From: Amphiscolops sp. MND2022
Taxonomy: Eukaryota
Assembly (NCBI GenBank): GCA_964187785.1
Contig: OZ076409.1
Coordinates: 70,682,001 to 70,746,000, forward strand
Direction of reading: 5' to 3'
Length of the DNA stretch: 64,000 nt
Shown: in pieces, positions 1-50,436 of the stretch
How positions within the stretch are numbered: position 1 is the first letter of the stretch
Layout of the letters: every line of letters begins with the position of its first letter
The notes under the pieces: generated by a model
Told to the model about the DNA's origin: nothing
What the model saw: only the letters and a program-made list of their open reading frames with translations
Database searches by the model: none
Translations under genes and position numbers: made by a program

Positions 1-218
1 AAAAAATGGTATTGATTGAATTGTATATAACAAGTAATAAAAGTTCAAATTGATTATTACGTTTCATTATTCAAGCTAAAACTTCATAACATAGTTTAAT
101 TAACGTCAACGCCACACACTTTACATCAACGCCCACCGTCTGTGGGCATGCCGAGGCATGCCCTTCGACGACATATACCAAATACATACCCAAACGACGC
201 CCGTACATCCCGGGCTAG

Positions 219-1529
219 GTGCCGGGATTTCTATTCGATAAAGTATTTTGCGCGGTTGGGTAGGGCCCCGTGAGCGCGCCAGGGGATTGTGTTAGAACAA
301 CCGGAAATTCGGCATACGATTTTGGCGATTTTCTAAACTATCCATACGATTTGGCTCAAATTTGGCATACGGGTTCCTGAGACAGATATAAGAACTAATT
401 CCTACTGGCGTTTTGCCCGGAAAATTTTTTTTGTTGCCCAAAATTGAAATTTTCGGCAAAAAAATGCGATTTTTTTTGAAAAATTTTTTTTGAGAGGCCA
501 TATCTTTTTTCAGGGTGCCCGGAGCGGGACGCGTTAAACTGATTATAAACTCTACGGTTCATGGGCTTTACGGAGAACCTAAGCTCGTTTCGCTCGGACA
601 AATAGTCTTGGAGATATAACGGGATTTTTCGGGAATTTTTTGAAAATTTTTCTAACGGTCCAGCTTATCTTTGCCATTTTTTCAAAAATGCACTCGCCTA
701 AAGGCCTCCCCTGGCCGGTTTTATTCCCAGCAAAACCATTTGGCCCTAAATACGGAGTTTCAGCGTTCCAGCATTCCCGGGCGAAAAGTTGTGGGACTTA
801 GAAAAATTTCAAAATTTTTCAAAAATTTTTTTTCCGTTTTCCGCCCTCCCCCCCGAGGGGAAAAGACCCCCCAACCAGTAATTTGAGTGAATTCATGTGG
901 AAAGGCCATGTTTAGAGGAGAAAAATGCCGTTTAGATCGTCTTTTTATTTTAACCTGTCGTTGACTTATGTTGTTTTGAAGGTGATGTTTGGATGTGTGA
1001 AGCATGTGAAAAGGTGTTTTATTGTGTCTTTAGCTCTTCTAAAAGCCATTGAGATACAAGGTGTAGCACTCAGAACGTGTTTAATTCTAAATTAGCAATG
1101 CATCAACACTTTTTGTGTCTTTGGACTCTGTTAAAAAAAATTTTTCCGACTAAAATCAAAAATTATTTATAATTATTCACATTTTTTTCTGATCTCATGA
1201 CTCGAAACAGTTGAGTACATTCCATCTCCCTTCCCGGGGGAGATGAGAATGTACTCTCTAAAGACCAGGTACTACAGTACTTACCTTCCCCGAGCAACGC
1301 CCCATAAAAATTGCGTTTTGATCATTCTATTTTGACATAATTCTATCTTTGTAATTTGACTGGAAATGAAGAAAATCCGCACGTGCTCTTTTATATCAAG
1401 TATCTTAACAACGCCATCTCTTTAACGTCAACGCCCCATAGTTCACATCAACGCCCACCGTCCGTGGGCATGCCGAGGCATGCCCTTCGACGACGTATGC
1501 CAAAGATATTCCCGAGCGCGTTAGCCTAG
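219..1529 (+). mobile_element. Unit, family A (1311 bp; GAGTACATT-type internal hairpin)
   Basis: GTG start, CTAG end; hairpin 1213-1256; close copy at 37813-39127. Confidence 0.8.
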
Positions 1530-3500
1530 GTGCGGGGGGGAAACCCCAACAAATATATTGGAGGATTCGGGTAGGGTCCTGAATCCGATTTTAACTCTAA
1601 TAGCTATCGATAGGAAATCTTGCAAAAATTTCGGGATCTCGTGATCTAACCATAGGATTTTAAAGTTGGAGCGGCCCCCACCAGATTTTCCGAAAATTAG
1701 CGCCCCCCACCGGGTTCCATACCCCGGAAAATTTTTTTCTGGCCACACGGGCGACCGTTAGGGGGTCATTTTAGGGGTAAAATTCATATTGGGCCACATA
1801 ACTTTTTTTCTGTTGATTTAAAACTTTAGGACCCTGCTAAAAGTTTCTTGACCATGTTGCGGGGGCTCCGGAGGTCCAAACCAATTTTTTCTATCTTGAA
1901 GCTATCTCCAAGTACCCCCCCGCCCAAACCGTTATTTTTCCGGAAACGAAGGTCTTTGACCCGGAAGGAGTCGTCTGAGCGCGGGGTCGTTAGGTGATGT
2001 TTTGGGGACGGCCTTGAGACGAAGTGGGGGACATGTAGTTTGCCAACCTCAGTTTACCCCCCGGACGGGAAATGACCGTTATATGAGCGGCAAAAATGTC
2101 CCCCTCCACGTTTTACCGCTATTTCCGGTGTGAAGGAGTGGGAGTAGCGCGTCGGGTGCCATATATCAAAAGTAGGTTTAGACAAGGATCTATCGGAAAC
2201 ATGTGGTTTGGGACCCCCTGGACCAACCCGTTAGCAGGAAATGGGGCTTCCGGCCCGTTTTTTTACGGTTAAAAACGGAAAATGGGCATTGAGGGGTAAA
2301 TATCTCGTGAACGCGTGGAGCTACGGTGTCCTTCACTACTACAAGGTTTCATACCCATGATATGGTGCCTTCAGGGGGGCAAACAGATTTCCGCTATCTA
2401 TCACCGTTACGGACTTGGCCCCCCAGCCTAACCGCTAAGTGACCGGAAATGTCACTTTTTGAGCCCAAAGGGTCGGTCCCAGCCAGGGAACGTTAGATAA
2501 CTTATTGTAGTACTCATTGAGATGAGTTGGGGGACATAGTTTCAGTCACCCCCCGTTACCCCTTAAGACCGGAAATGACCGTTATGTGAGTAAAGTTGCC
2601 GTTTTTGTCCTATTTGAAGGGCATTTAGATGCGGAAGGAGTGGTAATAGGTGCTTGGACACTATATGAGGTAAGGGAGGATATGAGGCGAGCATTCGGAA
2701 ATAACCGTTATGTTGACCCCAAAGTCCCCGTGGTACCGTAAACGACCGGAAATGGTCAAATTTTCTGTTTATAGGGTACAAATGGTTGGTATTTTGTAGA
2801 TAAAAGTATCTATTAGGTGTTTCGACGGTCTGCAGTAGTGAACATAGTCATGAAACCTTGTGGGGGGTAACGGTATATAGCACCGGAAGTCCAAACCGTT
2901 GGAGACAAGATAGGTTTTTTGGTTTTAAAATGTCTTTCGGCGTACTTTTGTCGACTATTAAGGACTACTTTTAAAAATTAAAGTTTTTCCATATAGTTTT
3001 AGAGACTCCGAAACCTCAACCAACATAACCGTTACCTCATGATAGCCTTTCAAGTTGGCCTGGTGTCAACTTGGAAGGGCTATCCTTCAAAAATCGTCAA
3101 TCAAGTGTGTCTTTGGGTATGTTTGTATCATTTTAGAATCAAATAGAGCTTCAAGAAAAGTTTGCCAACGACAAAAACTATGTCGTGATGATTCCGTTAT
3201 TAGAATAATAGTTAGCAAATTGTTGAGAAAATTGATTTTTTCCATATAAAATGTGTCCTAATTGCCAGGAAACCTATTTAACTTACAAATGGTATTGATT
3301 GGAATGTATGTAACAGAGTTATAAAAGTTCAAATTGACTATTACGTTTCATTATGGAAGCTGAAACGTAATATTTTAGTTTAATTAACGTCAACGCCACA
3401 CACTTTACATCAACGCCCACCGTCTGTGGGCATGCCGAGGCATGCCCTTCGACGACGTATGGCAAATCCCTTCTAACGACGCCCGTACATCCCGGGCTAG
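1530..3500 (+). mobile_element. Unit, family B (1971 bp; GATAGCC-type internal hairpin)
   Basis: GTG start, CTAG end; hairpin 3041-3084; close copy at 60430-62404. Confidence 0.8.
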
Positions 3501-5496
3501 GTGCGGGGGGGTAACCCCAACTTTTTTCTTGGAGGAATCGGGTAGGGTCCTGATTCCGAGCTTAGTGCCGCCAGCTATCGTTAAAAACCCATACCTTTTA
3601 AACCCGATCTCGGGAACTAACCACGCCCCTTCTTTAATTTTTTGGCCCCCACTCACTTTTTGAGAGTAGATCGCCCCCCACTGGGTTCGATGTTGGGCAA
3701 AAATGGAGATCATGGGTAACGGGGACCGTTAAGGGGTAACTCAGGGGGTAAAATTTATTTTTTGCGTCATATCTTTTCCCCCCGTGGATTTAGCGCTTCC
3801 GGTCAGCAGACAAAACCTCATGTACGTGATAAGGGGCCTCCATAGGTCCAAACAAAATTTTTCTATCATGCACCGTTACGGACTTGCCCCCCCGGCCCAA
3901 CCGTTATTTTACCGGAAATTGCACTTTTTGACCGGGAAGGAGTCGTCTGAGCACGGAGTCGTTTGGTAATGTTTTGTAGTGCATCTGGAGACGTGTTGGG
4001 GGACATGTAGTTTGCCGATCCCAGTTTACCCCTCAGACGGGAAATGACCGTTATGTGAGTTTTGAAAATGCCCCCCTTCAATTTTCCCCGCAATTTCCGG
4101 TGTGAAGGAGTGGGAGTAGCGTGTCGGGTGCCATATATCTAAAGTAGGTTTAGACAAGGACCAACCGGAAACATGTGGTTTCGGACCCCCTGACCCAACC
4201 CGTTAGCCGCTATTAGGGTGATCGCCTCCTTTTTTTGCTGTCAAAACCGGAAAACGGGCATTGAGGGGTAAATATCTCGTGAACGCGTGGAGCAATCGTG
4301 TCCATCACTACTACAAGGTTTCATACCCATGATATGGTGCCTTCAGGGGGGCAAACAGATTACCGCTATCTATCACCGTTACCGACTTGGCCCCCCAGCC
4401 TAACCGCTATGCGACCGGAAATTGCACTTTTTGAGCCCAAAGGGTCGATCCTAGCCGGGCAACGTTAGGTAACATATTGTAGTACTCATTGAGACGAGTT
4501 GGGGGATCTATTTTCAGTCGCCCCCCGTTACCCCTTGAGACCGGAAATGACCGTTATGTGAGTAGAATTGCAATTTTTATACCTTTTGAAGGGCATTTAG
4601 GTGCGGAAGGAATGGTAATAGGTGCTTGGACACTATATGATGTAATGGAGGTTGTGAGGAGAGCATTCGGAAGTAACCGTTACGTTGACCCCAAAGTCCC
4701 CCTGGTACCGTTAACAACCGGAAATGGCCAAATTTTGTGTTTATAGGGTACAAATGTTTGGTATTTTATGGATAAAAGTACCTGGAAGGTGTTTTAAAGG
4801 CCTCCAGAAGTGAACATAGTCATGAAACTTTGTGGGGGGTAACGGTATATCGCACCGGAAGTCCAAACCGTTAGTTACAGAATAGATTTTTTGGTTTCAA
4901 AATGTCTTGAGGCGTAGTTTTGTGGGTTGAATCGTCATAATATCAACTAATACGGACTTTTTTCGGAAATAAAATTTTTTCACATTAGTTTCAGGGACCT
5001 CCAATGTTTCAGTCAACATAACCGTTACATTTTGATAGCCTTTCAAGTTGGCCTGGTGTCAACTTGGAAGGGCTATCCTTCTAAAATCGTTAATCAAGAG
5101 TGTTTTTGGGTAGGTATATGTTGCATTAGTACCAATTAGAGCTTCATCAACAGTTTGCCAACGGCAAAAACGATGTCGTGATAATTCCGTTATAAGAATA
5201 TTAATTAACAAATTGTTTCCAAAGTTGATTTTTTCCATTCGAAATGTGTCCTAATGCCACCAAATTGAATAAAATAATAAATGGTATTGACTAAAACTAA
5301 ATAACATTGAAAAAGAAGCTCAACATTTTTAATAGGTCTCATTATGGAAGCTGAAACCTCACGTTTTAACTTAATTAACGTCAACGCCACATACTTTACA
5401 TCAACGTCCGCCGTCTGTGGGCATGCCGAGGCATGCCCTTCGACGACGTATACCAAATTCCTTTAACACAACACCCCCGAGCGCGGTAGCAGCTAG
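3501..5496 (+). mobile_element. Unit, family B variant (1996 bp), last unit of the left array
   Basis: Close copy at 54478-56469; ends CTAG followed by non-array sequence GTATCAAC. Confidence 0.8.
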
Positions 5497-11883: not shown

Positions 11884-11914
11884 TAAAGTGCAATAATTGC
11901 GTGGCTTTTTACAG

Positions 11915-14896: not shown

Positions 14897-15688
14897 TTGA
14901 CCCCAAAGTCCCCCTGGTACCGGAAGTGACCGGAAATTGTCAAATTTTGTGTTTTTAGGGTACAAATGTTTGGTGTTTAATGGATAAGAGTGCCTATTAG
15001 GTGTTTCGACGGTCTGCAGTCGTGAACATAGTCATGAAACCTTGTGGGGGGTAACGGTATATAGCACCGGAAGTCCAAACCGTTGGAGACAGGATAAGTT
15101 TTTTGGTTTTAAAATGTCTTTCGGCCTACTTTTGTCGACTATTATGGACTATTTTTGGAAAATAAAGTTTTTCCATATAGTTTCAGAGACTCCGAAACCT
15201 CAACCAACATAACCGTTACCTTATGATAGCCTTTCAAGTTGGCCTGGTGTCAACTTGGAAGGGCTATCCTTCAAAAATCATTAATCCAGTGCGTTTTTGA
15301 GTATGCTTGTTTTACATTAGAATCAATTAGAGCTTCAAGAAAAGATTGCCAACGACAAAAACTATGTCGTGATGATTCCGTTATTAGAATAATAGTTACC
15401 AAAATGTTGATAAAGTTGATTTTTTACATTTCAAATATGTCCTAAATGCCAGAAAACCTCTTTACCAAACAAATGGTATTGATTGAATTGTATATAGCAG
15501 CTAATAAAAGTTCAAATTGAAGATTACCTTTCATTATGCAAGCTGAAACGTCATATTATAGTTTCATTAACGTCAACGCCACATACTTTACATCAACGCC
15601 CACCGTCTGTGGGCATGCCGAGGCATGCCCTTCGACGACGTATACCAAATTCCTCAAACACAACACCCTCGAGCGCGGTAGCAGCTAG

Positions 15689-18600
15689 GTGGTCAGTGCT
15701 GTTGCGTTCATTTTTTTCCGGCCGTGGGGGAGGGCCCCTCTGAGGCCGGTCATTTTTCAGGTAACAGCTTTCTTATACAAAAAAGCGGGAAAAAACCTCA
15801 GTGCTCAAATCCCAACCGTCAGAATGAGCTGAAATTTGGCATGTAGCTAGTGCATTGCAAATGATTAGGATGGGTTATAACGCTATGTTTGGCAAAATTG
15901 GTTTTGTTGCATTTTTTTTGTCATATAGGGCCAAAAATGGCCTTTTTTGCGTATTTTTTGCTTGACTAGCTAATAACTCGCGTTGGGTTGGTACTAGCGA
16001 TACGGGTGTGGGGTATGGAATTGAAAGATTACCAAGTACCTTGCTGATGACGTTATTTGATTTCCGCTCACATCACCCCCCACGCCGGAAATGCCCAATT
16101 TGTCACTTCCGGTCGCAATTTTTGACTTTTTTGGATGGAGTCAAAACCCATTTCCGGTGTGAAGGAGTGGGTTGAGCGCTTCGACCACGATATACTAAAA
16201 GTAGGTTTAGACAAAGTCCTATTAGGAAAAAAGTAATGTAAGCCCGTACCTATCACCCCCTCGCCGGAAATAGGGGTCACGCCTCCTTTTTCTGTGTTGC
16301 AAAAGTGACATGTGCACATTTGTCCAACTCCGAAGCCCCGGAGCACCGTGGGACCCTTATACTTTCTAAACACCTATCCCACACGCTACCGGAAGTGACC
16401 GGAAGTTTCACCGGAAATGACATCCTTGGACCGGAAATGGTCAAAAAATGACTTTTCAATGCAAAATAGACACATTTGGTGCGATTTTTAGGCAAAAAGC
16501 ATAGTTCGTGAAACGCTTGTTGCAGTTGGAAGGGCCATTGTTCAGCAAGAATGCGTACAGCATTACGTAGCACATCAAGTAGTTGATACTTTTTCGTCCA
16601 TAATATCCTTAGGACCGGAAATGGCCATTTTTGAATCGGAAACTTCTTCAGCTTGATTTTTAACAGGTTTTTCCGCAATATTAGCGTAGGAATTGCTCCT
16701 CGGATGCTGTAGGTCTATTTTAAAACTAGCTAACTGCTTCTTAGAAATGTATTTCAGAAGTCCCAACCAATTCCAGAATACCGGAAATAAGAGTAATTGC
16801 CTCCTTTATGACCTTTGAATAATAAAGTGTTAAAATCCGCATATTATTTTTTTCCACACTTGTTGCTGAGATTATATCTAAGCAATAACATGTGCTTGTC
16901 ATGAAGTGCTGTAATGTGGGAGTTACGAATATTGCTATTTAAGAGTATTACATACGTGAATATCCGCCGTAATAAAGATTTTTTAAAACAACCACTTTTG
17001 AAGTCCTATAGATTGTCCGCACACCCGAAACAATTCAAGTTTCTAGTTTCGATTTTAAGGCTTCCGCGACTATTTAGTTGAGATGATAGTTTTCACGTTC
17101 TCTGCAAAACGTGCATTTCATTGTGTTTTTGACATTTATTGGGCTGTTTCACATTGTAATTCAAAACTAATTGATCATACAATTTGGAACAATTGAAAAT
17201 TTTCAATTGAACATTAAATGTTTTAATAGTTTCTCTTTCGTTGAAGATACTATTTTGTGGCCATTAGAACAGGTTGAATTAGTTGAATAAGTAGCCAGTG
17301 CGATACATCGTTTAATACATAGCGTTTGACATCGGTTTTTTTGCGAACAAAGACAAGCATGATTTGTTGAAAGTTTTTACCATATCGCTTCAAATCGGGT
17401 GTGACAAACAAGGAATTTCTCGTTTTATGTGCTACTCCGAAAGCAACCTGAAAACGCAAATCGTTCTATTGAATTATCGAGATGAAACTAAGCATTTCAA
17501 GTCTGGATTTCAATTTAATTCTATCACTCCGGTCTATTTTTATGTCGCAAGAGTGATAAAGCGTGTTAGCAAGGTTAAACACATCGAACAATTTTAATAA
17601 TAAAGCCTCCGGAAAGGGAAGAAAAAATGAGTTTTCCTGTCAAAACTATGATAACCACGTACGAAACATCAAGTTTTTGTATTGTTCAATAGTCCAAAAC
17701 GTGAATGAAGTTTTTAAATATCCAAGCGTTTCTAATCAAGCATGCGTTTCAAATGTCTGACAGGGCAGCATAGTTCTCAAAAAACATTGCTTTCAATGTG
17801 GTTTGATACCAGCAAAACGAACGTAGGCACAACCAGATTCTCAAATTTCTTGCAAAACAGCCGATTTCTTTGAAAATCCTAATTGATTTCACAGGGTATA
17901 TGGTGAAACCCTGTTGGATTCCAAAAATGAAAAGCTGATTTCTTGGGTTTGCGAGATAAAAGACAACGGGAATCTGAAAGCAAGTCATCTCAATAAAATA
18001 CCTGTTGCTCTTTAAACAAATGGACTTTAGTAGTGGAAATTTTTTCTCAGACACTTTCGATCAGAGAATGTTTGAGTCCTAACGTTCGAATCAGGTTGGT
18101 TTCAGGTGGCTCGAAGTGCCAGCTGAACCAACCTTTCAAATAAAGAAAAACCCCACATCTCCCTTCATGCCACGCTACCCCGTATAGCGTTTCAACTTGA
18201 CAGAAGTTGGAACGTTTGATTTTGGCGTCGCTTGGGATTGACACACCAGTGTTGATACTAAATTTGGCAAAGAGAAATCGCAGAAATGATTGTTTCTTTT
18301 CTTCCCTTTGATTTAGTCTGTCGAGCGTACAAAGCAGTTTGGGAAACTAACTTGCATTTCCACTGAACGAAAAAAAGTAGTAGCCTTGCAAACTCCTGGA
18401 AGAAATTGAATCAGGTTTTCCTATTTGTGAGATCAGCTGTCACTCAATTATCAATTACTTTTTTAAAAATTTTTAGGAACAACTAACCTAACTCTGCTCG
18501 ACTCTCTTGAATAATGCAACAATCGTTTACTGATCTGTGCTCGTGAGAAAAAACTCAACTGCAGGCTCAAAAACAATCTATATGTATTTGGTTTATTCAC

Positions 18601-18759
18601 TGCAAAGCTTTTTTTCACACCATGTGACTCAACTATTACATGTATGTAATGAAACCAATAACACCTTCAACTATCAACGCCCACCGTCCGTAGGCATGCC
18701 GAGGCATGCCTTTCGACGACGCGCGCCGGAAACAATCTAACGGCGCCACCCGCTTCTGG
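15689..18759 (+). mobile_element. Unit, family C (3071 bp) with AT-rich cargo
   Basis: Ends CTGG; near-identical copies at 44294-47365 and 47366-50436. Confidence 0.85.
17250..18330 (-). pseudogene. Possible highly decayed DIRS/Crypton-type tyrosine recombinase remnant inside family C
   Basis: Minus-strand fragments in the expected order: FLRFLF, FEPPETNLIRTLGLK, CCPVRHL, RNSLFV, VSHWL..LI; many stops; catalytic residues not identifiable. Confidence 0.3.
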
Positions 18760-20029
18760 GTGGCCGTGTCTTTTCGACGTGCTTTTGCATTGAGGAGTGG
18801 GTAGGGCCCCGCGACGACCTAGAAGAATTGGATGCTCACCGAAACGTGCAGAATTCTACGAGATCTCATAGTTTGAGCCATACGACTTTTCTGAAATTTG
18901 GCATGTGGCCTGGAATTGGTGAGTAGGTAAAACGTGTAGGAGGTGATTTTTCCCAAATTCCACTGTGAGACGAGATATGGGCAAATAACGGTCCCAAAAA
19001 TGGCAAAAATGCACTTTTTTCAACTTTGTCAGCCCATATCTCGTTCCCAGGTGCCCGGAGCGGGACGCGTTAAGCTGATTATAAACTCTAGGGTGTTGAG
19101 GCTGTACGGGGAAGTCAGGCCCGTTCCGATCGGACTTGTAGTCTTGGAGAAATAACGGTATTTTTGGGGAACCTTTTCTAACGGTCCAGCTTATCTTTGC
19201 CATTTTTTCGAAAATGTACTCGCCTAAAGGCCTCCCCCTGGCCGAATTTACTCCCAGCAAAACCATTTGGCCCTAAATACGGAGTTTCAGCGTTCCAGCA
19301 TTCCCGGGCGAAAAGTTGTGGGACTTGGAAAATTTTCAAAAATTTTCAAAAATTTTTTTTTTCGTTTTCCGGGCCCCCAATGAAGGGGAAACGACCCCCC
19401 AACCAGTATTTTGAGTGAATTCATGTGGAAAGCCCTTGTTTTGACGAGAAAAATACCGTTTAGAACATCTTTTTATCTTGACTCAACGTTGACTTATGAC
19501 GTTTTGAATGTGATGTAAGGATGTAGGAGGCATGTGATAAGTTGATGTTTTGAGTCTTTATCTCATATGAAAGCGGTTGAGATGCAAGCTGTCCTGCTCA
19601 AAACGTCTTTCGTTGTAATTTTCCAGTGCACCAATACCCTTTGGTGTCATATAAACATACTTTTTGTCGATATATTAACAATTTTAATGTATTTATTCCA
19701 ATTTTTATTATCTTATAACTCAAAACAGTTGAGTACATTTCATCTCCCTTTCGGGGGAGATGAGAATGTACTCGCTAAAGACCTAGCGCCATGACCAAAA
19801 GTTTGAAACCCACGTTTTTTATCTTCTTACAGACTTGTTTTTGTATTTTTTCGGAATTTTTTAAAAATTAATATACTTGAAAAACATTACTTGACTTTAC
19901 TACTACAACCCACCTCCAACGACAACGCCCCCTGCTTGCATCAACGCCCCATCGTCCGTGGGCATGCCGAGGCATGCCCTTCGACGACGTATGCCAAATG
20001 CCCAGTGCCACGCAGTCTTTCCCCGCTAG
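18760..20029 (+). mobile_element. Unit, family D (1270 bp)
   Basis: Copy at 21333-22598; GAGTACATT hairpin. Confidence 0.8.
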
Positions 20030-21332
20030 GTGGCCACGACCATGGTTTCTTGCGTATCTTGTCGAATCCTTTGTCGTTGCCGGCCGGGGAGGGACCCGTT
20101 TGCCGGCGTGTGTAGTGTGGGGCCCCCATACCCAAAAAGTGGTATTTTTTTCAGAGATCTCAAAATCGGCCCGTCAGAATTGCCTGAAATTTGGCATGAG
20201 GCTCCCAATTGGGGAAAAAATAAGAAGTGTAGAGGGCGACTTGTTCGGGTAAATATTGTATGTTGACTTTTGGCCAAAAGAGTGTTCCCCCCCAACTTGG
20301 GCAAAATCACATGAGGTGTAAAAATATGATCACAACTTTTGAACCTTTGGATTTAGGGGTACGGTCGTGGACTACATTAAGCAAGAGCTTTGGTGCGCGG
20401 GTAGGATAGATGGGTTTTGATCCCAGTACCTTCAACCACTTTTGAGAAATTAACGTTTCAAACAAACATCCGGGAGGTATATGTTGCCCCTGAAGGCAGG
20501 TTTTTCGCCATTTTCAATGTGTTGGAGTGGGTTTAGCGTAACGTGTGTGGTGTGCTTTTTTGTTGCCCGTGTGCGGAGCGTTGTATAGAGGTGCTGGTTG
20601 TTGAAATTGGAAAAGCTGCTAAAAAGTTATACCTATACCCCCCCTACTGTCTCTGCCATTCAATTTTTTTTCAACTTCAGGCCTCCCAAAGGTGAGAAAC
20701 TTCCACACAACTAGTATTGCAAGTGAATGCATGTGGAAAGTACTCGGATAGACGAGAAAAATGAGCTATAGAACGACTCTGTAGCTTAACTTGACGTTGA
20801 CTTATGACATTTTGAGTGTGAGCTTGCTATGTGAGAAAAAAATTCAAAATTGAAAATCGAAGCCAAGTCTCATCCAAAACTCATCGAAATACGTTCAATC
20901 CATCCCAAAGCGGATTAATTCCAGATATATAGTGCAGCAACACTATTCAAGACCATTTGACACAATTTTACTAGTTTTGACATTGTATTATTCATCCGAG
21001 AGCACAAAACAGTTGGGTACATTCCATCTCCCTTTCGGGGGAGATGAGAATGTACCCGCTAAATGACACGCACCATGGCCTAATTTTTACCTTTATGCGA
21101 CGTTTTCTAGGCTTTCGCGCAAGCCCACTAATATTTACACTGGTTTCTTTCTCTTTCACTCCAAACATTCCGTCCGTACTAACCACCTTACACACCACCA
21201 GCAGCTCAACGACACATCTGTAACGTCAACGCCACATACTCGCATCAACGCCCACCGTCCGTGGGCATGCCGAGGCATGCCCTTCGACGACGTATGCCCG
21301 TTGTCACAACAGGGCGCCCCTACATTCTCTAG
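20030..21332 (+). mobile_element. Unit, family E (1303 bp)
   Basis: Copy at 35217-36520; GGGTACATT hairpin 21015-21057. Confidence 0.8.
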
Positions 21333-22598
21333 GTGGCCGTGTCTTTTCGACGTGCTTTTGCATTGAGGAGTGGGTAGGGCCCCGCGACGACCTAGAAGAA
21401 TTGGATGCTCACCGAAACGTGCAGAATTCTACGAGATCTCATAGTTTGAGCCATACGATTTTGCTGAAATTTGGCATGTGGCCTGGAATTGGTGAGTAGG
21501 TAAAACGTGTAGAAGGTAATTTTTCCCAAATTCCACTGTGAGACGAGATATGGGCAAATAACGGTCCCAAAAATGGCAAAAATGCACTTTTTTCAACTTT
21601 GTCAGCCCATATCTCGTTCCCAGGTGCCCGGAGCGGGACGCGTTAAGCTGATTATAAACTCTAGGGTGTTGAGGCTGTACGGTGAACTTGGGCCCGTTCC
21701 GATCCGACTTGTAGTCTTGGAGAAATAACGGTATTTTTGGGGAGGTTTTTCTAACGGTCCAGCTTATCTTTGCCATTTTTTCGAAAATGTACTCGCCTAA
21801 AGGCCTCCCCCTGGCCGAATTTACTCCCAGCAAAACCATTTGGCCCTAAATACGGAGTTTCAGCGTTCCAGCATTCCCGGGCGAAAAGTTGTGGGACTTG
21901 GAAAATTTTCAAAAATTTTCAAAAAAATTTTTTTCGTTTTTGGGCCCCCAATGAAGGGGAAACGACCCCCCAACCAGTAATTTGAGTGAATGCATGTCAA
22001 AAGCCCTTGTTTTGACGAGAAAAATACCGTTCAGAACATCTTTTTATCTTGACTCAACGTTGACTTATGACGTTTTGAATGTGATGTAAGGATGTAGGAG
22101 GCATGTGAAAAGTTGATGTTTTGAGTCTTTATCTCATATGAAAGCGGTTGAGATGCAAGCTGTCCTGCTCAAAACGTCTTTCGTTGTAATTTTCCAGTGC
22201 ACCAATACCCTTTGGTGTCATATAAACATACTTTTCGTCAATATATTAACAATTTTAATGTATTTATTCCAATTTTTATTATCTTATAACTCAAAACAGT
22301 TGAGTACATTTCATCTCCCTTTCGGGGGAGATGAGAATGTACTCGCTAAAGACCTAGCGCCTGACCAAAAGTTTGAAACCCGCGTTTTTTATCTTCTTAC
22401 AGACTTGTTTTTGTATTTTTTCGGAATTTTTTAAAAATTAATATACTTGAAATACATTACTTGACTTTACTACTACAATCCACCTCCAACGTCAACGCCC
22501 CACTGCTTGCATCAACGCCCACCGTCCGTGGGCATGCCGAGGCATGCCCTTCGACGACGTATGCCAAATGCCCAGTGCCACGCAGTCATTTTCGCTAG
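21333..22598 (+). mobile_element. Unit, family D (1266 bp)
   Basis: Copy of 18760-20029. Confidence 0.8.
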
Positions 22599-23993
22599 GT
22601 GGTCGGGTATTTTTTTTTACTCGTATATGACGTTTGCGAGGCTTTGGGGAGGGCCCCGTGCCGAGCCTGTTATCCGAAATTCACCACTACCAGATCTGGT
22701 ATAAATAAGCGAGATCTCGAAAACTATCCATTAGAATTCCCTGAAATTTTGCATGTGGCTCCTAATCAATGAGTAATGAAAAAGTGTAGGAGTGACGGTT
22801 GCTGAAAAAATTGTCTTTGTTGCACTTTTTGCGCATTTTTTGTCGCATTGTTGCGTTTTTTATGTCATTTTCCACTTTGGAGGCAAAAAAGTCATATATG
22901 CTTTGTTCCTAGCGTATCAAGTGTGGAGCACGAAAAGTTGCAGCATCTTTGATTACGTCTGCTGTGAAAATTTGGTTGCCCTCGGCTTACCCCCCACTGA
23001 GATAGAGGGGTGCTTCCGGTCTTTTTTGACCCCTAAGTTTGGGAAATTGCTAATTTTCGTAATAAAGCCGTAGATTTAGCGTGTGCACACCCTGCTGAAG
23101 ATTTGTTAGGCATTTTGAGATAGATCCAATGACATGCGTTCAGTTCACCCCCATCACCCCCTGGACCGGAAATAAACTTTTTTGTGTCCTTTCAGACCGG
23201 AAGTCTCCATTTTCAACGGTAAGGAGTCATTGTACGAGCAACTAGCAGGGCATCAAAATTGAAGTACAATGTGGGGTGAGCCAAGTTACCACCTGTTGTC
23301 CAGTCATGGGTACCGCCATGACCGGAAATGGGGTCAAACCCCCCCTATTGGTCATTTTTTTATCAGTTTGACTTGTGTTTGGTCCACATACAAGTCGGGT
23401 AATGCAATTGAACCAGTGTGAGCATAAACTACACGTTCACTGCGTAGCCGTAAATGACACTGACAGATACCGGAAGTAACCCCTTGTGACCGGAAGTTGT
23501 CAATTTTGACCGGAAATGGCCCAAAAAGTAGCGTAAAAGCAGTTTTTCATTAGTTTTAGAGGTATTTCTTTTTACTTTTTCTACGCTGATTGATTTTTTC
23601 TACTCACAAAGCTAAGATCGTGGCTTGTTTGGCTAAAGTTCTGAAAAATGATCACCTTTATCACCCCCGATAGCCTTTCAAGTTGACCTTGGGTCAATCT
23701 TGAAGGCTATCAGTTCAGAAAACGAAAAATAGTGGAAATTGGGTTTCTCCTTTTCGTTGTTATTTTTTCCATAAAGTCAATTTGTTAAATAAGGCTTTTG
23801 TTCACCTGAGTGATCTGAAACTTGTCCAGAGGTGTCACACACACGAAAACCATTTCAAGTTGAAGTAAACATATGAGGGTAGTATTAGACAACATCACAC
23901 ACACTTACCAACGCCCACCGTCCGTGGGCATGCCGAGGCATGCCCTTCGACGACGTATGCCAAATAGCGCCACAGGGCGCCCCCATTTGCTAG
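22599..23993 (+). mobile_element. Unit, family F (1395 bp)
   Basis: GATAGCC hairpin 23669-23711; distantly similar to families H and L. Confidence 0.8.
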
Positions 23994-26009
23994 GTGGTCG
24001 GGGTTTTCTCCCCACCTTTATTTGCGAGCGCGGGAGACGGGTCCTGTCGCGAGCCTTAGATACCAAAAATAGCCTATCCGCGACCGGGTCAAAAAAATGC
24101 GATCTCGAAAACTAGCCGTACGATTCGGCTGAAATTTGGCACACGGCTTCCTATAACAGTTCTAAGAAACATTTACTACTGACGTTTTGCTGGCAAAAAT
24201 CGAAAAGTGGGTCAAAATAACGGTTTTTGGGGTAAAAAGTAGCGTTTTTTTGAAAATTTTGCATTTCACAGCCAATTACTCGAAAATGGTCGATCCAGCG
24301 CAGTAACGCCTTGCTGATTTATTGTTGGGCACGTCAAGAAGCGTACGTACACAAATTTTGGTCCATATCGGACTGAAACTTGGGGAGATATTAACGGTAG
24401 TTTGGGGGTTTCAAACCGCTATTTTACCGGAAATTGCACTTTTTGACCGGGAAGGAGTTGTCTGAGTGCGGGGTCGTCTGGTAATGTTTTGTAGAGCATC
24501 TGGGGACGTAGTGGGGGACATGTAATTTAATGACCCCGGTTAACCCCTCGGACGGGAAATGACCGTTATGTGGGTTTTAAATGTGGCCCCCGCCAATTTT
24601 CCCCGTTATTTCCGGTGTGAAGGAGTGGTAGTAGCGCGTCGGGTGCCTTATATCAAAAGTACGTTTAGACAAGGACCTATTGGAAACATGTGGTTTGGGA
24701 CCCTTTGAACGGACCCGTTAGCCGCTAATGGGGTGACTGCCTCCTTTTTTTGGGGGTAAAACCGTAAAACGGGCATTGAAGTGAAATTAACTCGTGAACG
24801 CGTGGAGCTATCGTGTCCTTCACTACTACAAGGTTTCATACCCATGATATGGTGCCTTCAGGGGGGCGAACAGATTTCCGCTATCTATCACCGTTACGGA
24901 CTTGGCCCCCCAGCCTAACCGCTATGTGACCGGAAATGTCACTTTTTGAGCCCAAAGTGTCGGTCCCAGCGTGGCAACGTTAGGTAACCTATTGTAGTAC
25001 ACATTGAGACGAGTTGGGGGATTTAGTTTCAGTCACACCCTGTTGGCCCGTTAGGTCGGAAATGACCGTTATGTAGTGAAAAATGGGATTTTTATAGTTT
25101 TTGAAGGCCATTTCGGGCAGGAAGGAGGGGTAATATGACTTTGGACACCATATGATGGAAGACGTGAAGTGTGACCAGCATTCCGGATTAACCGTTATGA
25201 TGACCCGGAAGTCCCCCTGGCACCGGAAATGACCAAAAAAATGTAACATTTTGTGTTTTTTGATTAAAAATGTTTGTTATTTAACCGAATAAAGTACATG
25301 TTAGGTGTTTCAATTTCTTCCAGAGGTGAATATAGTCCAATTACATGGTGGGGGGTAACGGTATATTGCCCCGGAAGTCCAACCCGTTGGGTCTGAGTAT
25401 GTTTTTCGGGTTTTAAAATGTGTCAAAACGTACTTTTGTGTAATAAATCTCTATTGTAGGCTAATAAGGACCATTTTTGAAGAGTTTAAATTTTTTCATA
25501 GTAGTTTGTGGAACACCAAAAACTTAAATAACATAACCGTTATAATTTGATAGCCTTTCAAGTTGGCCTTGTGTCAACTTGGAAAGGCTATCCTTCAAGA
25601 CTCATGCAACAAAGAAGTTTTTGGGTACATTTGTAATGCTTTAGTGTCAATTAGAGTATCAACAAGAGTATACCAAGCACTAAAACTATGTCTAGTTTTC
25701 GTTATTAGGATATTAGTTTCCTGAATATTTGTCGGAAATGCTTTTTTAAATCTCTTTTAATGTGGTCTAAATACTCTGAAAACACTTTATCGAACCAATT
25801 TTCTTGGATGAACCTTAGTAACAATACTAAAAATCGTAGACAACCTTGCTTCGTTTAAATATTTGAAGCTGAAACCGCACCTTACCGTTGCTCAAACTTC
25901 AACCCGACGCCCCATAGCATACATCAACGCACATCGTCTGTGGGCATGCCGAGGCATGCCCTTCGACGACGTATGCCAAATACCTTTAACCCGACGCCCG
26001 CAGTCCTGG
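23994..26009 (+). mobile_element. Unit, family G (2016 bp)
   Basis: Ends CTGG; near-identical copy at 31812-33827; core related to family B. Confidence 0.85.
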
Positions 26010-27079
26010 GTGGTCAAGGGGGATGCCCATCAGAAAATATTGCGAGGCCGGGGAGGGTCCCGAGAGCCGAGCACATTCTATCAATTCCTACCTTCAGGAT
26101 TGCGAAGTATTTTAACCGATCTCGAAATTCACCCGTAGGATTTGTCTGAAACTTTGCATGTGGCTTTATCTGAAAAATTTAAGAACTTTTTTCTGCTGAC
26201 GTTTTTCCAGGAAAATTCATTTTGTAGGGTTTTTTTGCGTTTTTTTGGTTTTTTTCATCTTTGTTCATCTTTGATTAATCAATGACCGAATCAAAGGCCA
26301 TTTTCACCATGAAGGAAAGCCCGTAGCGGCAAAGTGCACTTTTATGAAAATCATCAACGGTCAACGGTCTTTCGAACGGTCCAAAAAAATTTCCCCCCGG
26401 GGGCAACCAAAGTGCCGAAAAGTGCCAAATTTATTTTTTTGACTGAATCACTTTGATCAAATTGATGATTTGAGCAGCCAGAACGGTCCGCACGGTCTCG
26501 GACAATAAGGTCAAAAATTGTCAGCATCCAATGGGGGTTCCAAAAATGTAATTCGTTCACCTGTAGGAGACATCTGAAAAAAGTTGATTTTTTGGAGTTT
26601 TGGCATTATGACTGATCGGATGATAAATCATTGCATCACGTTGAGTTGCATTTGATGCAGCACACGAAGCAGCTGCAGCGAACTTGAAACTACTTAGGGG
26701 GTTGTGGTTTACTATCTGTAACAAGCAAAATATCCCTTGGGCAAAAGGTATGCCAAAAAGTGCCTCAAAGTTTTAATTAAGTTGTTGCAAATCGGCTAGC
26801 AAAATTCATTGTCACCGGTGTTCCGTGAGTTGCGCAGCATCTCGCGGGAACAACGGTGCTTGTTTCGAACGCAAAACCCAACATACCTCTTTGGTGACGT
26901 GACGGAGGTCACCATTAGCCTTTTTCGGCAGTGTGATGATATTTTTTTTGTTGAATTGTGAAAAACATACACAAAAGATTTAGCGTGGGATATTTGTTTG
27001 TGTCATACTTCAGTAACAAACTTTCAACCGTTTTGCTTAGGCCTCTACCTAGCAGTGCTCTAAATCGCTCCATCGCTAG
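26010..27079 (+). mobile_element. Atypical unit M (1070 bp) lacking the terminal hairpin
   Basis: Normal head motifs and CTAG|GTG end, but no GGCATGCC block; 5' half similar to the next unit. Confidence 0.6.
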
Positions 27080-30000
27080 GTGGTTGGGGCGTTATTCCCC
27101 ACGAAGTTCGCGGCCGCGGGAGACGGGACCCGCGGACCGCCCATCCAATGCAAAAATATACACTCTAAACAGCACCATTATAAACACGATCTCGAAAATG
27201 AACCGTAGGATTGTCTTGAAATTTTGCATACGGATAGAAGAGAAAATTCTAAGAACTTTTTCCTGCTGGCACTTTTCCGAAAAAAATGTCCTTCATGTGT
27301 TTTTTTGGGTTTTTTTGTTTTTTTCTCATCTTTCTCATCTTTGATTAATCAATCACTGAATCAAAGGCCATTTTCAGCATGAAGGAATGCCCGTAGCGGC
27401 AAAGTGCACTTTTACAAAAATCATCAACAGTCAACGGTCTTTCGAACGGTCCAAAAAATTTTCCCCCGGGGGGCATCCAAAGTGCCGAAAAGTGCCAAAA
27501 TATTTTTTTTGTCTGAATCATTTTGATGAAATTGTTGATTTGAGCAGCAGGAACGGTCCGCACGGTCTCGGACCATAAGGTCAAAAATTGTCAGTGAGTT
27601 ATGGTGACGACCAAAATGACATTGGTTGAGCTGTAGGAGGCCTCTGAAAAAATTTGAATTTTTTGAGTCTACAATCCGAGCTGAACTGTTACGTATTATG
27701 AACTTTTCAGTACTATGTTGCCAATGACCGAGTACAGATAGATGCATGGGTCAGCCTTATTGAAATGAACATTGGGCACTGGGCTACCGATTGAGTACAA
27801 AAATTATAGCCTAGTTGCTGTAGTCGAAGAAAAAAATTCTCAGAAGTGTTACTTTCAATTTGTCATGTTGACTCGGAGTTACAAAAAGGTGATTTTCTCG
27901 CCAACAACGGTCCGAAAGGTCTTCGACCATGAGATCAAAAATTGTCAGTGTGCTATGGTGACGCCCAAAAACCTACCGGAACAAGCGTAGGATGCTTCTG
28001 AAAAAATTTCGAATTTTTACGTCGGCCCAAGAGTTATTGTGTTACATCGTAACAACTTTTCGTGTATGCATATCTCCTGACAGAGTACAGATAGCATCAT
28101 GGGTCACCTTTATGAAAGTGAACGTGGGCCACTGGTGAACTGCATGGTTATAAAAAATTTAGACTAAGTGCTGCACGGCGTGAATAATATGCCAAGATGT
28201 GTTATTTACGATATTTTAGCACGACTCGGACTGACAAAAAGCCTATTTCTGCCCCAGCAACGGTCCAAACGGTCATCAAGTGTAAGGTCAAAAAATGTCA
28301 GTGTGACATGATGGCGCCTAAAAACCCACCAGAACATTGGTAGGAAGCTTCTGGAAAAAATTCGAATTTTTACGTGGGCCCGAGAGTTATGATGTTGCAT
28401 CGTAGCAACATTTCGTGTATGCATATCTCCTGACAGAGTACAGATAGCATCATGGGTCACCTTTTTGAAAAAGAACGTGGGCCACTGGTCTATCGATTGG
28501 TTGTAAAAAGTTTTCAATCACTGCTGCACGGCGTGAATAATATGCCAATATGGGGTATTTAGCATTTTTTTGCACGACTCGGACCTACAAAAGTCCCATT
28601 TCTGCTCCACCAACGGTCCGTACGGTCTTCAACCATAAGGTCAAAAAGTGTCAGTGTGCTATGGTGACGCCCAAAAACCCACCAGTACACTTGTACAGTG
28701 CTTCCGAAAAATGTTGGAATTTTTAGGTGAGTCCGAGAGTTATAGAGAGTTATGTTGTCACATCGTAACTACATTTCGGGAATGTATATCTCCTGACACA
28801 GTACAGATACCAATATGGGTCATCTTTTGGAAAGTGAACGTGGGCCACTGGCCTACCGAATGATGATAAAAAGTTTTCACCAGTTGCTACAGGGAGTGAT
28901 AAAAGTGCTTACATGGGTTACATAGCATTTTTTCAGGCGACTCGGACTTACAAAAAGCTCATTTGCTCGCGAACAACGGTCTGTACGGTCTCCACTCAAT
29001 GGGTCGAAAATTTTTTGTGGGCTATGGTGACGCTCAAAAACCCATCAGTTTACTTGTGGGATGATTCTGTAAAAATTTAGTGTTTCCGTGCAGACTATGT
29101 TACATATTACATTGGGAACCGTGTTTTTTTCTCACCAAAATCATGTTTTTGAGTGCCCAAAAACAATTTTTAAAGCCCAGTAGCCACCTAAAATGTTCTT
29201 TTGCATAACATGGGATGTGAATAACGTGAAGAAAGTGCTCACTGTGGATTTGGAGTTATCTCGAAAAAATCAGCTGCCATTAGACGTTACATTACATAAA
29301 ATCGTTCCTTACATATCGATTCATGGGTTGAGTCAAAAACAGCTAAAGTTCTTTTTCAGTCAATTAAGACACTTTACTGTTCACAACCAAGTGTACAGCT
29401 GACGTCGAACCTATTTGACCTTTCACAATGGTTATAGTTCAATTTTGAAGTACAAAAGCCTCTTTGACAAACAAAATTCCATGATGAAATTGCTTTCCAA
29501 ATCATTTTTTGAAGTATAGGAACGCCATTTTTAGCCGAGAACCATCTAATATCCACTTCTCTTGGCCCAGTGGCTTGTGAAAAATACAACTGGGCATTGA
29601 CAAGGCACAAGGACCTTACTTCGAGTAGTAATGTGCCACAATATTTGCTAATCGATAGCAAATTTTGTTGAAAATTGATACAACATCACATTTTTGGTGG
29701 ACTCGAAATGACAAAATGGAGCTTCAGCAGCAACTATTGGCTTTTAGTGCAACTCACTGGCACTGTAGCTTACGAAAATACGGTTTACAGTAGTTTCATG
29801 CTACTTTTTCAGAATCTGAGGTACATAAAAATATCATACTGAATAGACATATAACTTCCACATCGGAATTTTTCCGGATGTGTCACCGCTTTTTTGGTAT
29901 CAGCGGTCCTACCAACACTGTTTTTGGTCTAACACTAAACCCGAAGATCAACGAAGGTGTATATCAGACTTGTAAAATCAATGCAAGGACTTTCGACATG

Positions 30001-31811
30001 TCAAAAGTACTGATAAGAAGAGAAACTTCTCAAAAATTCATGTTATGTGTCATATTCCATTCCACGTTTTTTAATCGGTGCTTGTCGGTTATAGTATTAA
30101 CGCTCAGCAACGAGGTTACTGACAAGATACAACTTGTTAACAGTTATTAAAAGTATTTATAATACCACCTTGCTCGGTCTTGGCACATTTTTCATCCCAT
30201 TCAGTCTTAACGTGTAAATTTTACTTCCCAAAAACCCTATTTTTGTCAGGTCGAAATTCGAATTTTTGTGTTTTGATCAATATTATTGTGTCTGACGTAA
30301 CCTGTGGCCTCCAAAATACTCAAAAACAATAGTATGACTGCTATCAAATGCTTCAGTGATATGTGGGGCACGTTAACACGTTTTGGTAGGAACAATTCCA
30401 CTTTGAAGTGAAAATTTGGAAGACACATTGTGTCAATAAAAACTGAATAGGTGAAAAACGTACCTAACTCTCGTCAATTAGTATTAATGTAGTAACTGTG
30501 TTGCGAATTAGAGGTCTATAGAGTGGTGTATGGGAAAACTGTGGCGCATAAAGCGTTGTTCATAACAAAGTTCTTCCAGTAACTACTATTGTGTTTTCAA
30601 AAGTTTCACTATATTTCACATATCCACAGAATGTGATTGATGCTACCTAGTAATGGAAAACCACAGTCGAATCTTCTTTAGTGGACTCAACAGTCCTGAA
30701 AATCACAGACATCAATCATGTTTCATAATTATACGATCGAGGCTACACAATAATTTATTTCCGCTAGTTTCTGATAACTGAATTTCCTGATAGCCTTCCA
30801 AGTTGGCCTTGTGTCAACCTGGGAAGGCTATCAGTACAAAACACAAAGAACACAGCTTGTTGTTGCCTTTAATTTGCTGTTGTTTTCGTTAAGATTCTAT
30901 GGTACCGTCTCTTTATAACATGTGGTTAACATAAGACAATTTCTCTCGGTATGGAACGACATCCATTGATAAGAAAGATTACAGTTTTTTAGTTGAAAAA
31001 GACCTTGAAACTACTGCGCAATTCATGCAATTCATCCAAAAAGCTCAATAATTTCAATACTTTGCGTCCCATTGAGCGTCACGAACCACAATACTCCCTT
31101 TAACTGACAGTACAAAGACACATCATCATTTGACCGTCCACAGAGCGAAGGCGTGGCGAGGCACGCCTTTCGAAGTCCTTTGGCAAAAAAGTACTAACGT
31201 CCGTTCGTGACGCATACGAAAAACTCTTTTCATTTCAACAATCGTCATAAAGCATATTCGTTATATCGTCTTTTGGTTACATTTGTGCAGTGATACCTTT
31301 ATCAGTGAAATATTAAGTTATACCTAGGTAACAGCAGTTACTTCGTGATTACCAAAGTGATATCAAAATGTTGTTACATAAATATTTCTGACAGCGGAAT
31401 TCCGAAGTGTCATTAGGTACTTTTGCAGTGCTCGTTAGGAAAGCGAGTACTTTTGCTTGGACCAAACATGCTTGTATCAGATTGGTCATGTGAAGGCAGG
31501 TAACGGAATCAAAACAATGTTCCTCATCAACTTTTTGGTAGGGTCAGAAACACAATGTTTCCTTTTTACCGTCCCCCAATTGTTTGTTAGCTTCTGTTCA
31601 TAGAGAATTGTTTCTGCGCAGACCAAAATATAGCAACTTATCCAATACGCCTGATATCGGTTTTGCCCCACACAGAACTATCACTTAACATTTTTGTATG
31701 TTGACATCTTTTTACCCCGTAGTTCAACAACTCATGCACCTTCATTTCTTCTTCAACAACTAACTCGCCACCTCCGTGTCGTCTCGTGGTTTGTTTAGCC
31801 TCCAGCGCTAG
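27080..31811 (+). mobile_element. Atypical long unit N (4732 bp)
   Basis: Head motifs; internal ~353 bp tandem repeats; GATAGCC hairpin 30789-30832; divergent terminal-type hairpin 31146-31172. Confidence 0.6.
27550..29090 (+). repeat. Diverged tandem repeat, period ~353 bp, a little over 4 copies
   Basis: aacggtc...ggtc...tcRaaaa anchor at about 27552, 27906, 28259, 28612, 28975. Confidence 0.8.
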
Positions 31812-33827: not shown

Positions 33828-35216
33828 GTGGTTGGGGCGGTCCCCAGAACGCACAAGGAGGCGCGGGGAGGGTCCTGCGCCGACGTAGAATAATTTCATA
33901 TAATACTAGTATCCTACATGGGTGTTTTAGAGGCGATTTTGGAATCTAACCGTAGGATTTGGATAATTTTTTGCATGCGGCCATAACTCGAAATTCTAAG
34001 AACTTTTTCCTACTGTCATTTTCCCCGCAAATTGTTTTTTGTTGACTTATGGCCGAAAAACCGGAAATAACGTCCTTTTTAGACGTTATATCCGAAGTGT
34101 CGTCATAACTTTTTTCCAGGGCATGCTAGCGTTCTCGTTCACTTTTACACTTAGTTGCAGCATCTCAAAATACAACTGGTGGAAAATTTTGGTTGCATTC
34201 GGATCACCCCCCACCGAGATAGAAGGGTTCCCCCCTCCAGTTTTACCCCCCAAATTTGCAAAATAGCCAATTTTGAGCATGAAGCCGAGGATTTAGCGTA
34301 CCCGCACCCTCCTGATGTTTTGTTGTACGTATTGGGGTCAATCTGACGACATGTGTGGTTTTCACCCCCAACCCCCCCTTGGACCGGAAATGACACTTTT
34401 TTGTGTTTTTTGGCAGAATTTAGCCTTTTTCATTATTAGGCAGTCGTTTTAGGGACTCCTAGCAGGATATCGAAATTGAAATACAACCTGATCACAACCC
34501 AGTGACAACATGTTGGCCACTTGGAGGTATCATCATGACCGGAAGCGGGGTCAACCCCCCTTTTTGTGACCGCTTTTTGACCTTGTGCACCAAAATGCCA
34601 ACATCTTGAGGCCTAATGAGGCATTCAAATCTGTACAAAGATAAAATGTTAGACAACCGAAGTCCCGGAAGATCTTTAGCATATACGGGAAGTTACCCCC
34701 CATGACCGGAAGTTACCCAATGTGACCGGAAATGGTCCAAAAATTAATGTAAAGTTGAATTTTTCACTATTTCAAGACCACTTCATTGAACATTTCCTTT
34801 CCCAAAACTAGCGTACTGGCTTGTTTTGCTGAATTTGTGGAAATTGATGAGCTCTATCACCCCCGATAGCCTTCGAAGTTGACCTTGCGTCAACTTTGGA
34901 GGCTATCGATAAAGAAAAATGAACAACAAAGTACATTGTTGCTCTCGTTCTTTTCCCGTTGTTTTTCCTCAAACATTCTTGAGACATATACATGGCCGTT
35001 AGTTGAAATCAATATTTAGCCCATGTTATAGCTGGAGCAGCGAAGCGTTACACAGACTAGTGTGGTTTTGAAATCACACTATTTAAATTAACAACTGACC
35101 GTCTTAGTCAACTCCACACATTCATACCAACGCCCACCGTCTGTGGGCATGCCGAGGCATGCCCTTCGACGACGTATGACGAATCCATTCCAACGACACC
35201 CGCAGTCCTCAGCTAG
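33828..35216 (+). mobile_element. Unit, family H (1389 bp)
   Basis: Copy at 51708-53096; GATAGCC hairpin 34865-34907. Confidence 0.85.
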
Positions 35217-50200: not shown

Positions 50201-50436
50201 CGTTTACTGATCTGTACTCGTGAGAAAAAAATCAACTGCAGGTCCAAAAACAATCTATATATCTTTGGTTTATTCCGTGCAAAGCTTTTTTTCACACCAT
50301 GTGACTCAACTATAACATGTATGTAATGAAACCAATAACACCTTCAACTATCAACGCCCACCGTCCGTAGGCATGCCGAGGCATGCCTTTCGACGACGCG
50401 CGCCGGAAACAATCTAACGGCGCCACCCGCTTCTGG
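44294..50436 (+). mobile_element. Two tandem family C units (44294-47365; 47366-50436)
   Basis: Near-identical to 15689-18759; CTGG|GTG junctions. Confidence 0.85.

Follow-up and report, generated by a model that had tools for sequence, protein, structure and literature searches.

Two head-to-tail arrays of units without open reading frames (ORFs) fill much of a 64-kb stretch of the genome of the acoel Amphiscolops sp. MND2022 (assembly GCA_964187785.1, contig OZ076409.1, positions 70,682,001 to 70,746,000). This whole stretch is called the window here and is numbered from 1 to 64,000. The order of the units is shuffled and their families are mixed. We found that each of the 31 units that could be inspected bears an imperfect hairpin of 42-46 nt, and that two of these hairpins, H1 and H2, never occur together in any of the 31 units whose relevant region is visible. 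These elements look like a non-autonomous variant of the rolling-circle type with a testable internal signal. Our tentative reading is that they are Helitron-like units which insert at each other's junction, and that the hairpin quite possibly acts in cis on the plus strand, most likely in the priming of the second strand.

The arrays, with one complete unit of each class, are:

1..5496, plus strand: first array, composed of a stub of family B, one A unit and two B units; it ends as CTAG|GTATC in host DNA, the sole visible host flank
14897..64000, plus strand: second array, 28 shuffled segments with 13 family labels; a gap of 200 N (14697-14896) hides its start
219..1529, plus strand: complete H1-class unit of family A, 1311 nt
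1530..3500, plus strand: complete H2-class unit of family B, 1971 nt

In total, there were 32 segments with 14 family labels, the 32nd segment being a stub of 218 nt, and complete units measured 1070-4732 nt. The unit sizes were narrow despite the divergence of the families: 1266-1315 nt in the H1 class, 1381-1395 nt in F, L and N, 1971-2016 nt in B and G, and 3071-3072 nt in C. This hints at a constraint on size or spacing.

The copies of the two hairpins are:

1213..1256, plus strand: H1, 18 base pairs (bp), one bulge on the 3′ arm, conserved AAACAGT upstream
starts at 19731, 21015, 22302, 36203, 37497, 38807, 40124, 41413, 42689, 43978 and 51410, plus strand: further copies of H1
21015..21057, plus strand: H1 variant of family E, with an A-T pair changed to G-C on both sides; the same change stands at 36203-36245
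3041..3084, plus strand: H2, 19-20 bp, with central mismatches and G-T pairs, the 5′ arm more constant than the 3′ arm
starts at 5034, 15225, 23669, 25549, 30789, 33367, 34865, 52745, 54147, 56011, 58002, 59969, 61941 and 63936, plus strand: further copies of H2

Covariance models of H1 and H2 were searched over the window with the filters off. The H1 model found 12 copies at 67.9-85.8 bits (best non-member, 11.2), and the H2 model found 15 copies at 63-74.4 bits (best non-member, 10.9). A preliminary description, made from the letters of this DNA alone, had proposed two mutually exclusive hairpins of about 44 nt, some 200-400 bp before a terminal hairpin. The exclusion holds, with H1 in 12 units, H2 in 15 and both in none, and the positions given there for H1, for the family E variant and for the H2 copies at 3041-3084, 23669, 30789, 34865 and 54147 were correct. 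The dimensions need correction: H1 is 43-45 nt long and lies 185-208 nt from the terminal palindrome, and H2 is 43-44 nt long and lies 210-348 nt from it. The hairpin ends 221-622 nt before the end of the unit, and 979 nt before it in unit H. The two exclusive classes stand, but there are more than two types of hairpin, with H3 in family C and H4 in the unit at 26010-27079.

Unit ends and junctions

All 31 unit ends read CTRG (26 CTAG and 5 CTGG); after 30 of them the next unit begins with GTG, and after the remaining one host DNA begins (GTATC at 5497). Each of the 30 joins between units is exact. We found no target duplication at the junctions and no terminal repeats in the units. The shared features of the ends are:

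1526..1532, plus strand: example of the exact junction CTRG|GTG
1447..1494, plus strand: 3′ subterminal core of 48 nt, 0.93 identity over 12 families; 29 copies in one orientation, and a diverged copy near 31130
1466..1485, no strand assigned: palindrome of 20 nt within the core, in the 29 core copies; this is the terminal hairpin of the preliminary description
1563..1586, plus strand: one instance of the 5′ subterminal hairpin, which encloses a motif of the GGGWAGGGYCC type about 40 nt into every unit

The core palindrome lies 45-60 nt from the unit end. Downstream of the core, the sequence follows the upstream family as far as CTRG, and the next family starts there. The 5′ hairpin was present about 30-60 nt into the unit in all 17 starts examined; its outer stem is family-specific, and 16 of the 17 fold better on the plus strand as RNA. 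In addition, a small stem 10-15 nt before CTRR was seen in B, F, J, N, E and C, and was weak or absent in A, D, K and G.

The 30 junctions include 26 distinct neighbour pairs, and five families reappear at 97-99% identity beside different neighbours. Thus, the units would seem to move singly, landing exactly on a junction. Furthermore, in a contig of sequencing run X1 (share 0.11), the B start at 1526 follows another 3′ end than in the window; the contigs of this run do not reach the hairpins. A scan of metagenome contigs for the core gave a sole locus (L001). It has H1 as well as the core, its junction reads CGAG|GTG, and its H1 has the same G-C pair as the family E variant. Exact-pattern scans of viral contigs for the core, H1, H2 and the junction gave 0 each, and the scan of prokaryote genomes for the core gave 0 as well.

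Conservation of the hairpins and the unit classes

Among six family representatives per class, identity was 0.89 in H1 and 0.87 in H2, compared with 0.48-0.55 in most flanking blocks of 50 nt. The block immediately 5′ of H1 reached 0.67, and shuffled controls gave 0.44-0.53. The hairpins had been described as islands of conservation in diverged flanks, and these values bear this out. In full-unit alignments, the 44-nt segments that match the conservation of the hairpin numbered 27 of 1268 among the 8 units of the H1 class and 32 of 1352 among the 3 units of F/L/N, all of them at the hairpin or the core. In B/G (6 units), 39 of 1928 were as conserved, and a body stretch at 2333-2391 ties with the hairpin. 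The hairpin is nearly as conserved as the terminal core.

The folding z-scores of the plus strand ranged from -4.1 to -8.1, and pairing was kept in 98.5% (H1) and 97.2% (H2) of the alignment cells. The change in family E, earlier called compensatory, is indeed an A-T pair turned into G-C, but covariation is thin, with one doubly changed pair per class. The covariation score was reached by 54 of 500 shuffles for H1 and by 28 of 500 for H2, and thus covariation alone is not significant. The hairpin structure is real, though it is not proven by covariation alone. The plus strand folds better as RNA in 10 of 11 variants of H2, 7 of 9 variants of H1 and 2 of 2 C stems. In addition, the 5′ arm of H2 (identity 0.91) is better kept than the 3′ arm (0.85), which carries indels, while both arms of H1 are equally conserved.

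Further hairpins were found in family C and in one other unit:

18093..18134, plus strand: H3, a third imperfect hairpin of 42 nt, in family C only; also near 46699 and 49770
18156..18166, plus strand: 11-nt piece that matches exactly the inner 5′ arm of H1 and the start of its loop, in family C between H3 and the H2-like stem
18183..18216, plus strand: shorter H2-like stem of family C; its 5′ arm is identical to H2 at 16 of 19 nt, and two differences are compensated
26813..26858, plus strand: H4, a fourth imperfect hairpin of 46 nt and 20 bp, in the single unit 26010-27079, which is without the terminal core

A loose hairpin rule gave 35 hairpins in the real window against 5-8 per shuffled window. 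This rule was too permissive, and therefore H3 and H4 were retested under stricter rules. An H3-like hairpin arose in 2 of 60 shuffles of the unit under a rule of 16 pairs; H3 depends on this rule, which missed the plus-strand H2 copy at 30789, and was itself missed by a rule of 19 pairs. For H4, 1 of 120 shuffles reached 19 bp and -22 kcal/mol, and 0 of 120 reached -26. H3 is known from family C alone and H4 from one unit alone. About 50 nt separate the two hairpins of family C, and the 8-nt core of its 11-nt piece occurs on the plus strand only in H1 copies and in the three C units. A shorter analogue in this family had been placed at 18188-18214. The stem there spans 18186-18216. Its 5′ arm is like H2 at 16 of 19 nt, and the three C stems rank next after the true H2 members, yet the H2 model gives them only 10.7-10.9 bits (E about 1).

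The H1 units have a common body in A, D, I, J, K and L001, shared by E in its second half only. The six H1 families form one body lineage, and none of them bears H2. This body includes the following block:

725..805, plus strand: conserved block in the body of H1-class units; neither family E nor any H2 unit has it

In four of the five other H1 families, 72-80 of the 81 nt of this block are alike. The body common to the H1-class units and L001 covers about 250 nt (725-980), with phased A-tracts at 800-830, and among A, D, I and J its conservation equals that of H1. By comparison, H2 is the sole internal match between three non-aligning bodies (B/G, F/L/N and H), of which otherwise only the ends align; this fits either great age or transfer of H2 as a module. 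No body with H1 in one unit and H2 in another was seen in the window.

When 17 5′ ends were placed in a tree, F, an H2 unit, fell together with the H1 units D, K and E and with C (support 98/97). The class labels are still clustered in this tree (3-4 of 500 shuffles were as low), with at least two class changes forced. The H1 and H2 classes have a common junction, 5′ hairpin and 3′ core, and one terminal machinery would serve both.

Role of the hairpins and comparison with known systems

The ends, the orientation and the absence of duplication point to rolling-circle elements of the HUH type. One trans-acting HUH-type enzyme would mobilise the units by reading their common ends. The plus strand would peel off from GTG to CTRG and then circularise, and the circle would insert at a site like its own junction (RG|GT). 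An enzyme that cuts circle junctions would also find chromosomal junctions, so that these would be hot spots and mixed arrays would be built. The hairpin, one per unit, would fold on the displaced strand a few hundred bases before the 3′ end and would prime second-strand synthesis, as in the single-strand origins of rolling-circle plasmids. H1 and H2 would be lineage-specific versions of one function. The single-strand origins (ssoA and ssoU, and ssiA of RSF1010) are bacterial, strand-specific imperfect hairpins upstream of the nick site; they comprise alternative sequence types with one function and are read by RNA polymerase or primases. The unit hairpins are likened to them by this general description.

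Non-coding families would be selected mainly on their cis needs for copying, and no unit is without a hairpin; thus, a cis signal is the simplest reading. The presence in 31 of 31 units would be expected of a cis requirement and not of a trans-acting cargo. The preliminary description had spoken of interchangeable cis signals. The cis signal remains the best reading, given the 31 of 31 units and the conservation close to that of the core, whereas H1 is confined to one body lineage, so that interchange is not shown by these units. In the parts of the Helraiser work cited here (PMC5876387), the plus strand is transposed, the circles carry a precise end-to-start junction that is cleaved by the enzyme, and the circles must be double-stranded; lagging-strand synthesis or a minus-strand primer is offered for this, and the primer was not found. 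The making of the second strand on the peeled-off strand is an open point in that text, and for this step an obligatory hairpin with a fixed location offers a concrete candidate that can be tested by mutation.

However, several points weigh against second-strand priming by rolling-circle units. The same parts of the Helraiser work also explain double-stranded circles by ordinary lagging-strand synthesis, with no dedicated signal (PMC5876387). No transposase or autonomous partner was found in the window, the 5′ end is GTG and not TC, and the hairpin 10-15 nt before CTRR is clear in some families only. Covariation is not significant in H1 or H2. In addition, the strand bias of H1 is weak (about 1-2 kcal/mol), with a C-A mismatch on the plus strand in family I and an even balance in L001. 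Four unrelated hairpins, each fixed in sequence, exceed the needs of a priming signal that depends on structure only. A literature search for such a second-strand signal returned nothing, and in a search that took in few subscription papers and no Repbase neither these acoel elements nor an obligatory hairpin inside such units turned up.

The units behave like Helitron1 but fall outside it, because their 5′ end is GTG and not TC. In the parts considered of the reports on Helraiser (PMC5876387) and on adjacent maize Helitrons (PMC2267711), Helitron1 likewise has a 3′ CTRR, no terminal repeats or target duplication, exact end-to-start junctions, a single orientation and structure on the plus strand. 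The CTRR of the units is CTAG in 26 and CTGG in 5 of 31 ends, and CGAG in L001. All 30 starts read GTG, and even read one base later they give TG, still not TC. Helitron1 inserts between A and T, and the sole host flank of the units, on the right side only, reads CTAG|GTATC. Unlike Helitron1, the units have a palindrome 45-60 nt from the end, an extra 5′ hairpin, an obligatory long internal hairpin and a dozen unrelated families in one array of exact junctions.

Helitron2, Helentron and HINE elements, as covered in the parts considered of PMC3627910 and PMC7492417, share with the units the hairpins near both ends (a 5′ hairpin in 17 of 17 starts and a 3′ palindrome in 29 copies) and the internal tandem sub-repeats (B, G and H). 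However, the asymmetric inverted repeats of 8-15 nt are lacking in the units, where the longest exact inverted matches of 14 families measure 5-7 nt and share no position, and the unit ends CTRG and GTG differ from T-rich termini with a TT or TC target. Since the termini fit neither the Helitron1 nor the Helitron2 pattern, annotation by ends would miss such elements. Replitrons (PMC10288648, in part) are alike in a left end directly after RG, a hairpin near the right end and an HUH-type signature. AG or GG precedes 30 of 30 starts, all of them unit-unit junctions and not host targets. Unlike in Replitrons, there are no short direct terminal repeats (the first and last 15 nt share 2-6 nt, inconsistently) and no fuzzy ends in the units, and the part of the Replitron report considered here lists these elements from plants, algae and protists, not animals (PMC10288648).

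As to tyrosine recombinases, the terminal direct repeats of 4-6 bp that form the recombination core of Cryptons have a candidate in RGGT, if the left host flank ends in RG, and such a route is possible. Tandem arrays of transposable elements (PMC5932611, in part) are likewise head-to-tail and were put down to insertion-site preference. They are dimers of one family that keep the target duplication, whereas the units here are of mixed families and have no duplication. The exact insertion of the units into each other's junction amounts to site-specific targeting, which may be of use in genome engineering.

As the main alternative, it is possible, though doubtful, that the hairpins are instead Drosha-independent small-RNA precursors, cut by Dicer or Argonaute and carried as cargo. 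The units would then be expression cassettes, possibly driven by a p53-type palindrome, and the array would be a shuffled small-RNA cluster; if the hairpins are processed RNAs, acoels would have such a cluster in mobile form. This explanation would suit the common size of the four unrelated stems (42-46 nt and 16-20 bp), their central bulges, their G-U pairs, the better-kept 5′ arm of H2, the cluster-like pair in family C and the lack of any such hairpin in 9.2 kb of host DNA. Canonical animal microRNA precursors, as given in the part considered of MirGeneDB 3.0 (PMC11701709), are alike in about 19 pairs, central mismatches and, for H2, one arm more constant. However, these precursors measure 49 nt or more there, with no arm below 20 nt, and the unit hairpins have 42-46 nt with loops of 3-8 nt; H1 reaches about 50 nt only when 3-4 flanking bases are added in D, E and J. 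A Drosha lower stem is also lacking, the flanks being unpaired or inconsistently paired in 17 folded examples, with the H2-like stem of family C as the main exception. Thus, canonical microRNA precursors are unlikely, and of the small-RNA precursors suggested earlier the non-canonical kind is kept. H1 and H2 have no Rfam match, the best antisense target in the window (17/22) is not convincing, the two arms of H1 are equally conserved, and a trans-acting cargo should be missing from some units, while this one is missing from none.

The preliminary description had also proposed that the two classes are read by two different helper enzymes. We consider it unlikely that H1 is recognised by one helper enzyme or accessory protein and H2 by another, with each of the two supplied by a separate autonomous element, although within each class the sequence as well as the shape is fixed at nearly the level of the terminal core, the classes exclude each other and H1 is tied to one body lineage. 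The termini are shared, each class inserts into the junctions of the other, and the 5′ ends mix across classes with at least two changes forced; therefore, two helpers are not needed, and H3 and H4 would require more of them. Nor do the hairpins look like earlier or alternative 3′ terminators that became internal when read-through captured the present end and that persist since they still stop some rounds of replication. In families D and J, CTAG does stand 9 nt beyond H1, and Helitron tandems with several serial 3′ ends are described in the part considered of PMC7492417, but there is no CTRR at this place in E or I nor after H2, 0 of 31 unit ends lie at an internal hairpin, and Helitron terminators are palindromes of 16-20 bp (PMC2267711, in part), about half this length. 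We regard this explanation as very unlikely. Finally, it is highly improbable that the palindromes have no function and that hairpin-templated self-repair, together with gene conversion between neighbouring units, maintains them. Conversion is active, as families A and I have terminal segments in common and their units are mosaics of one another; nevertheless, mismatches and bulges persist without repair, both flanks drop to near-shuffled identity within 50-100 nt, and H1 persists in L001, a separate dataset.

The core palindrome at 1466-1485 also has the layout of two adjacent p53-family decamers (RRRCWWGYYY). It agrees with this consensus at 19 of 20 positions in the 29 core copies, and one unrelated site (9615) is also at one mismatch. 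Five copies have A-T at the base of the palindrome, and the diverged copy near 31146 shows cores of CGTG and CACG; these paired changes fit a hairpin equally well, and therefore the predicted p53-family response element is a lead only. A literature search that joined Helitron and a p53-family element returned nothing. It is quite unlikely, though conceivable, that the arrays are an integron-like animal store of small-RNA cassettes, in which junction-homing rolling-circle units would each carry a different Drosha-independent hairpin and a p53-family element, and DNA damage would switch on the shuffled repertoire.

Minor candidates, unusual units and host DNA

Rfam gave 0 matches in the window at the gathering score. 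In E-value mode the matches were at chance level only, with none on H1 and one that clips the end of H2, and mir-1814 over H3 scored 17.3 bits against a cut-off of 90. Several other identities were rejected. Introns or Introners, with the junction read as GT..AG, are ruled out because 5 of 31 ends are CTGG. Pairing of the integron attC type between CACC in the core and GGTG at the junction is ruled out because G, I and one D copy deviate in this stretch. Arrays of long terminal repeat (LTR) elements or terminal-repeat retrotransposons in miniature (TRIM) do not fit, as there is no CA end and family-specific sequence flanks both sides of the exact junction. Ribozyme-bearing retro-elements gave no Rfam match, and the published acoel spliced leader is unlike the units by eye, no formal search having been made.

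Unit H (27080-31811; 4.7 kb) contains an internal tandem repeat of 353 nt at 27870-29075 and the diverged core near 31130. It has CTAG|GT at 31324, 480 nt before the unit junction, and may be a unit plus trapped spacer. Unit H and unit 26010-27079 have a common, different 3′ end (CTCCAKCGCTAG). The sub-repeats of B and G are about 500 nt long. Six-frame read-through of the interiors of C and H gave no Pfam match in 12 of 12 frames. At 36521-44293, the same 5′, body and 3′ segments recur in mosaic combinations in the A and I units, which shows recombination or conversion between neighbours.

The host DNA between the arrays (5497-14696) has no long imperfect hairpin of the unit type in its 9.2 kb. 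An exon of the ribosomal RNA-processing gene Fcf1/UTP23 (Pfam) lies at 10262-10804 on the plus strand, about 5 kb from each array, and a protein cluster 64% identical to it includes a protein from the acoel Convolutriloba macropyga, which places the host among the acoels or near them. The stretch 11970-12170 resembles a later UTP23/Fcf1 exon, and part of it is repeated at 14521-14695 next to the N gap. An open frame of 232 codons at 7960-8658 (plus strand), without a significant Pfam match, looks by eye like the C-terminal part of a non-LTR retrotransposon protein. There are no transfer RNA (tRNA) genes in the window. On the minus strand, tRNA-like heads with A- and B-box-like motifs at 9480-9545, 9810-9865 and 13265-13325, none of them called by ARAGORN, are probably fragments of short interspersed nuclear elements. 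In addition, a dispersed host repeat family with short internal repeats occurs in both orientations at 5730-6050, 7720-7830 and 11040-11710.

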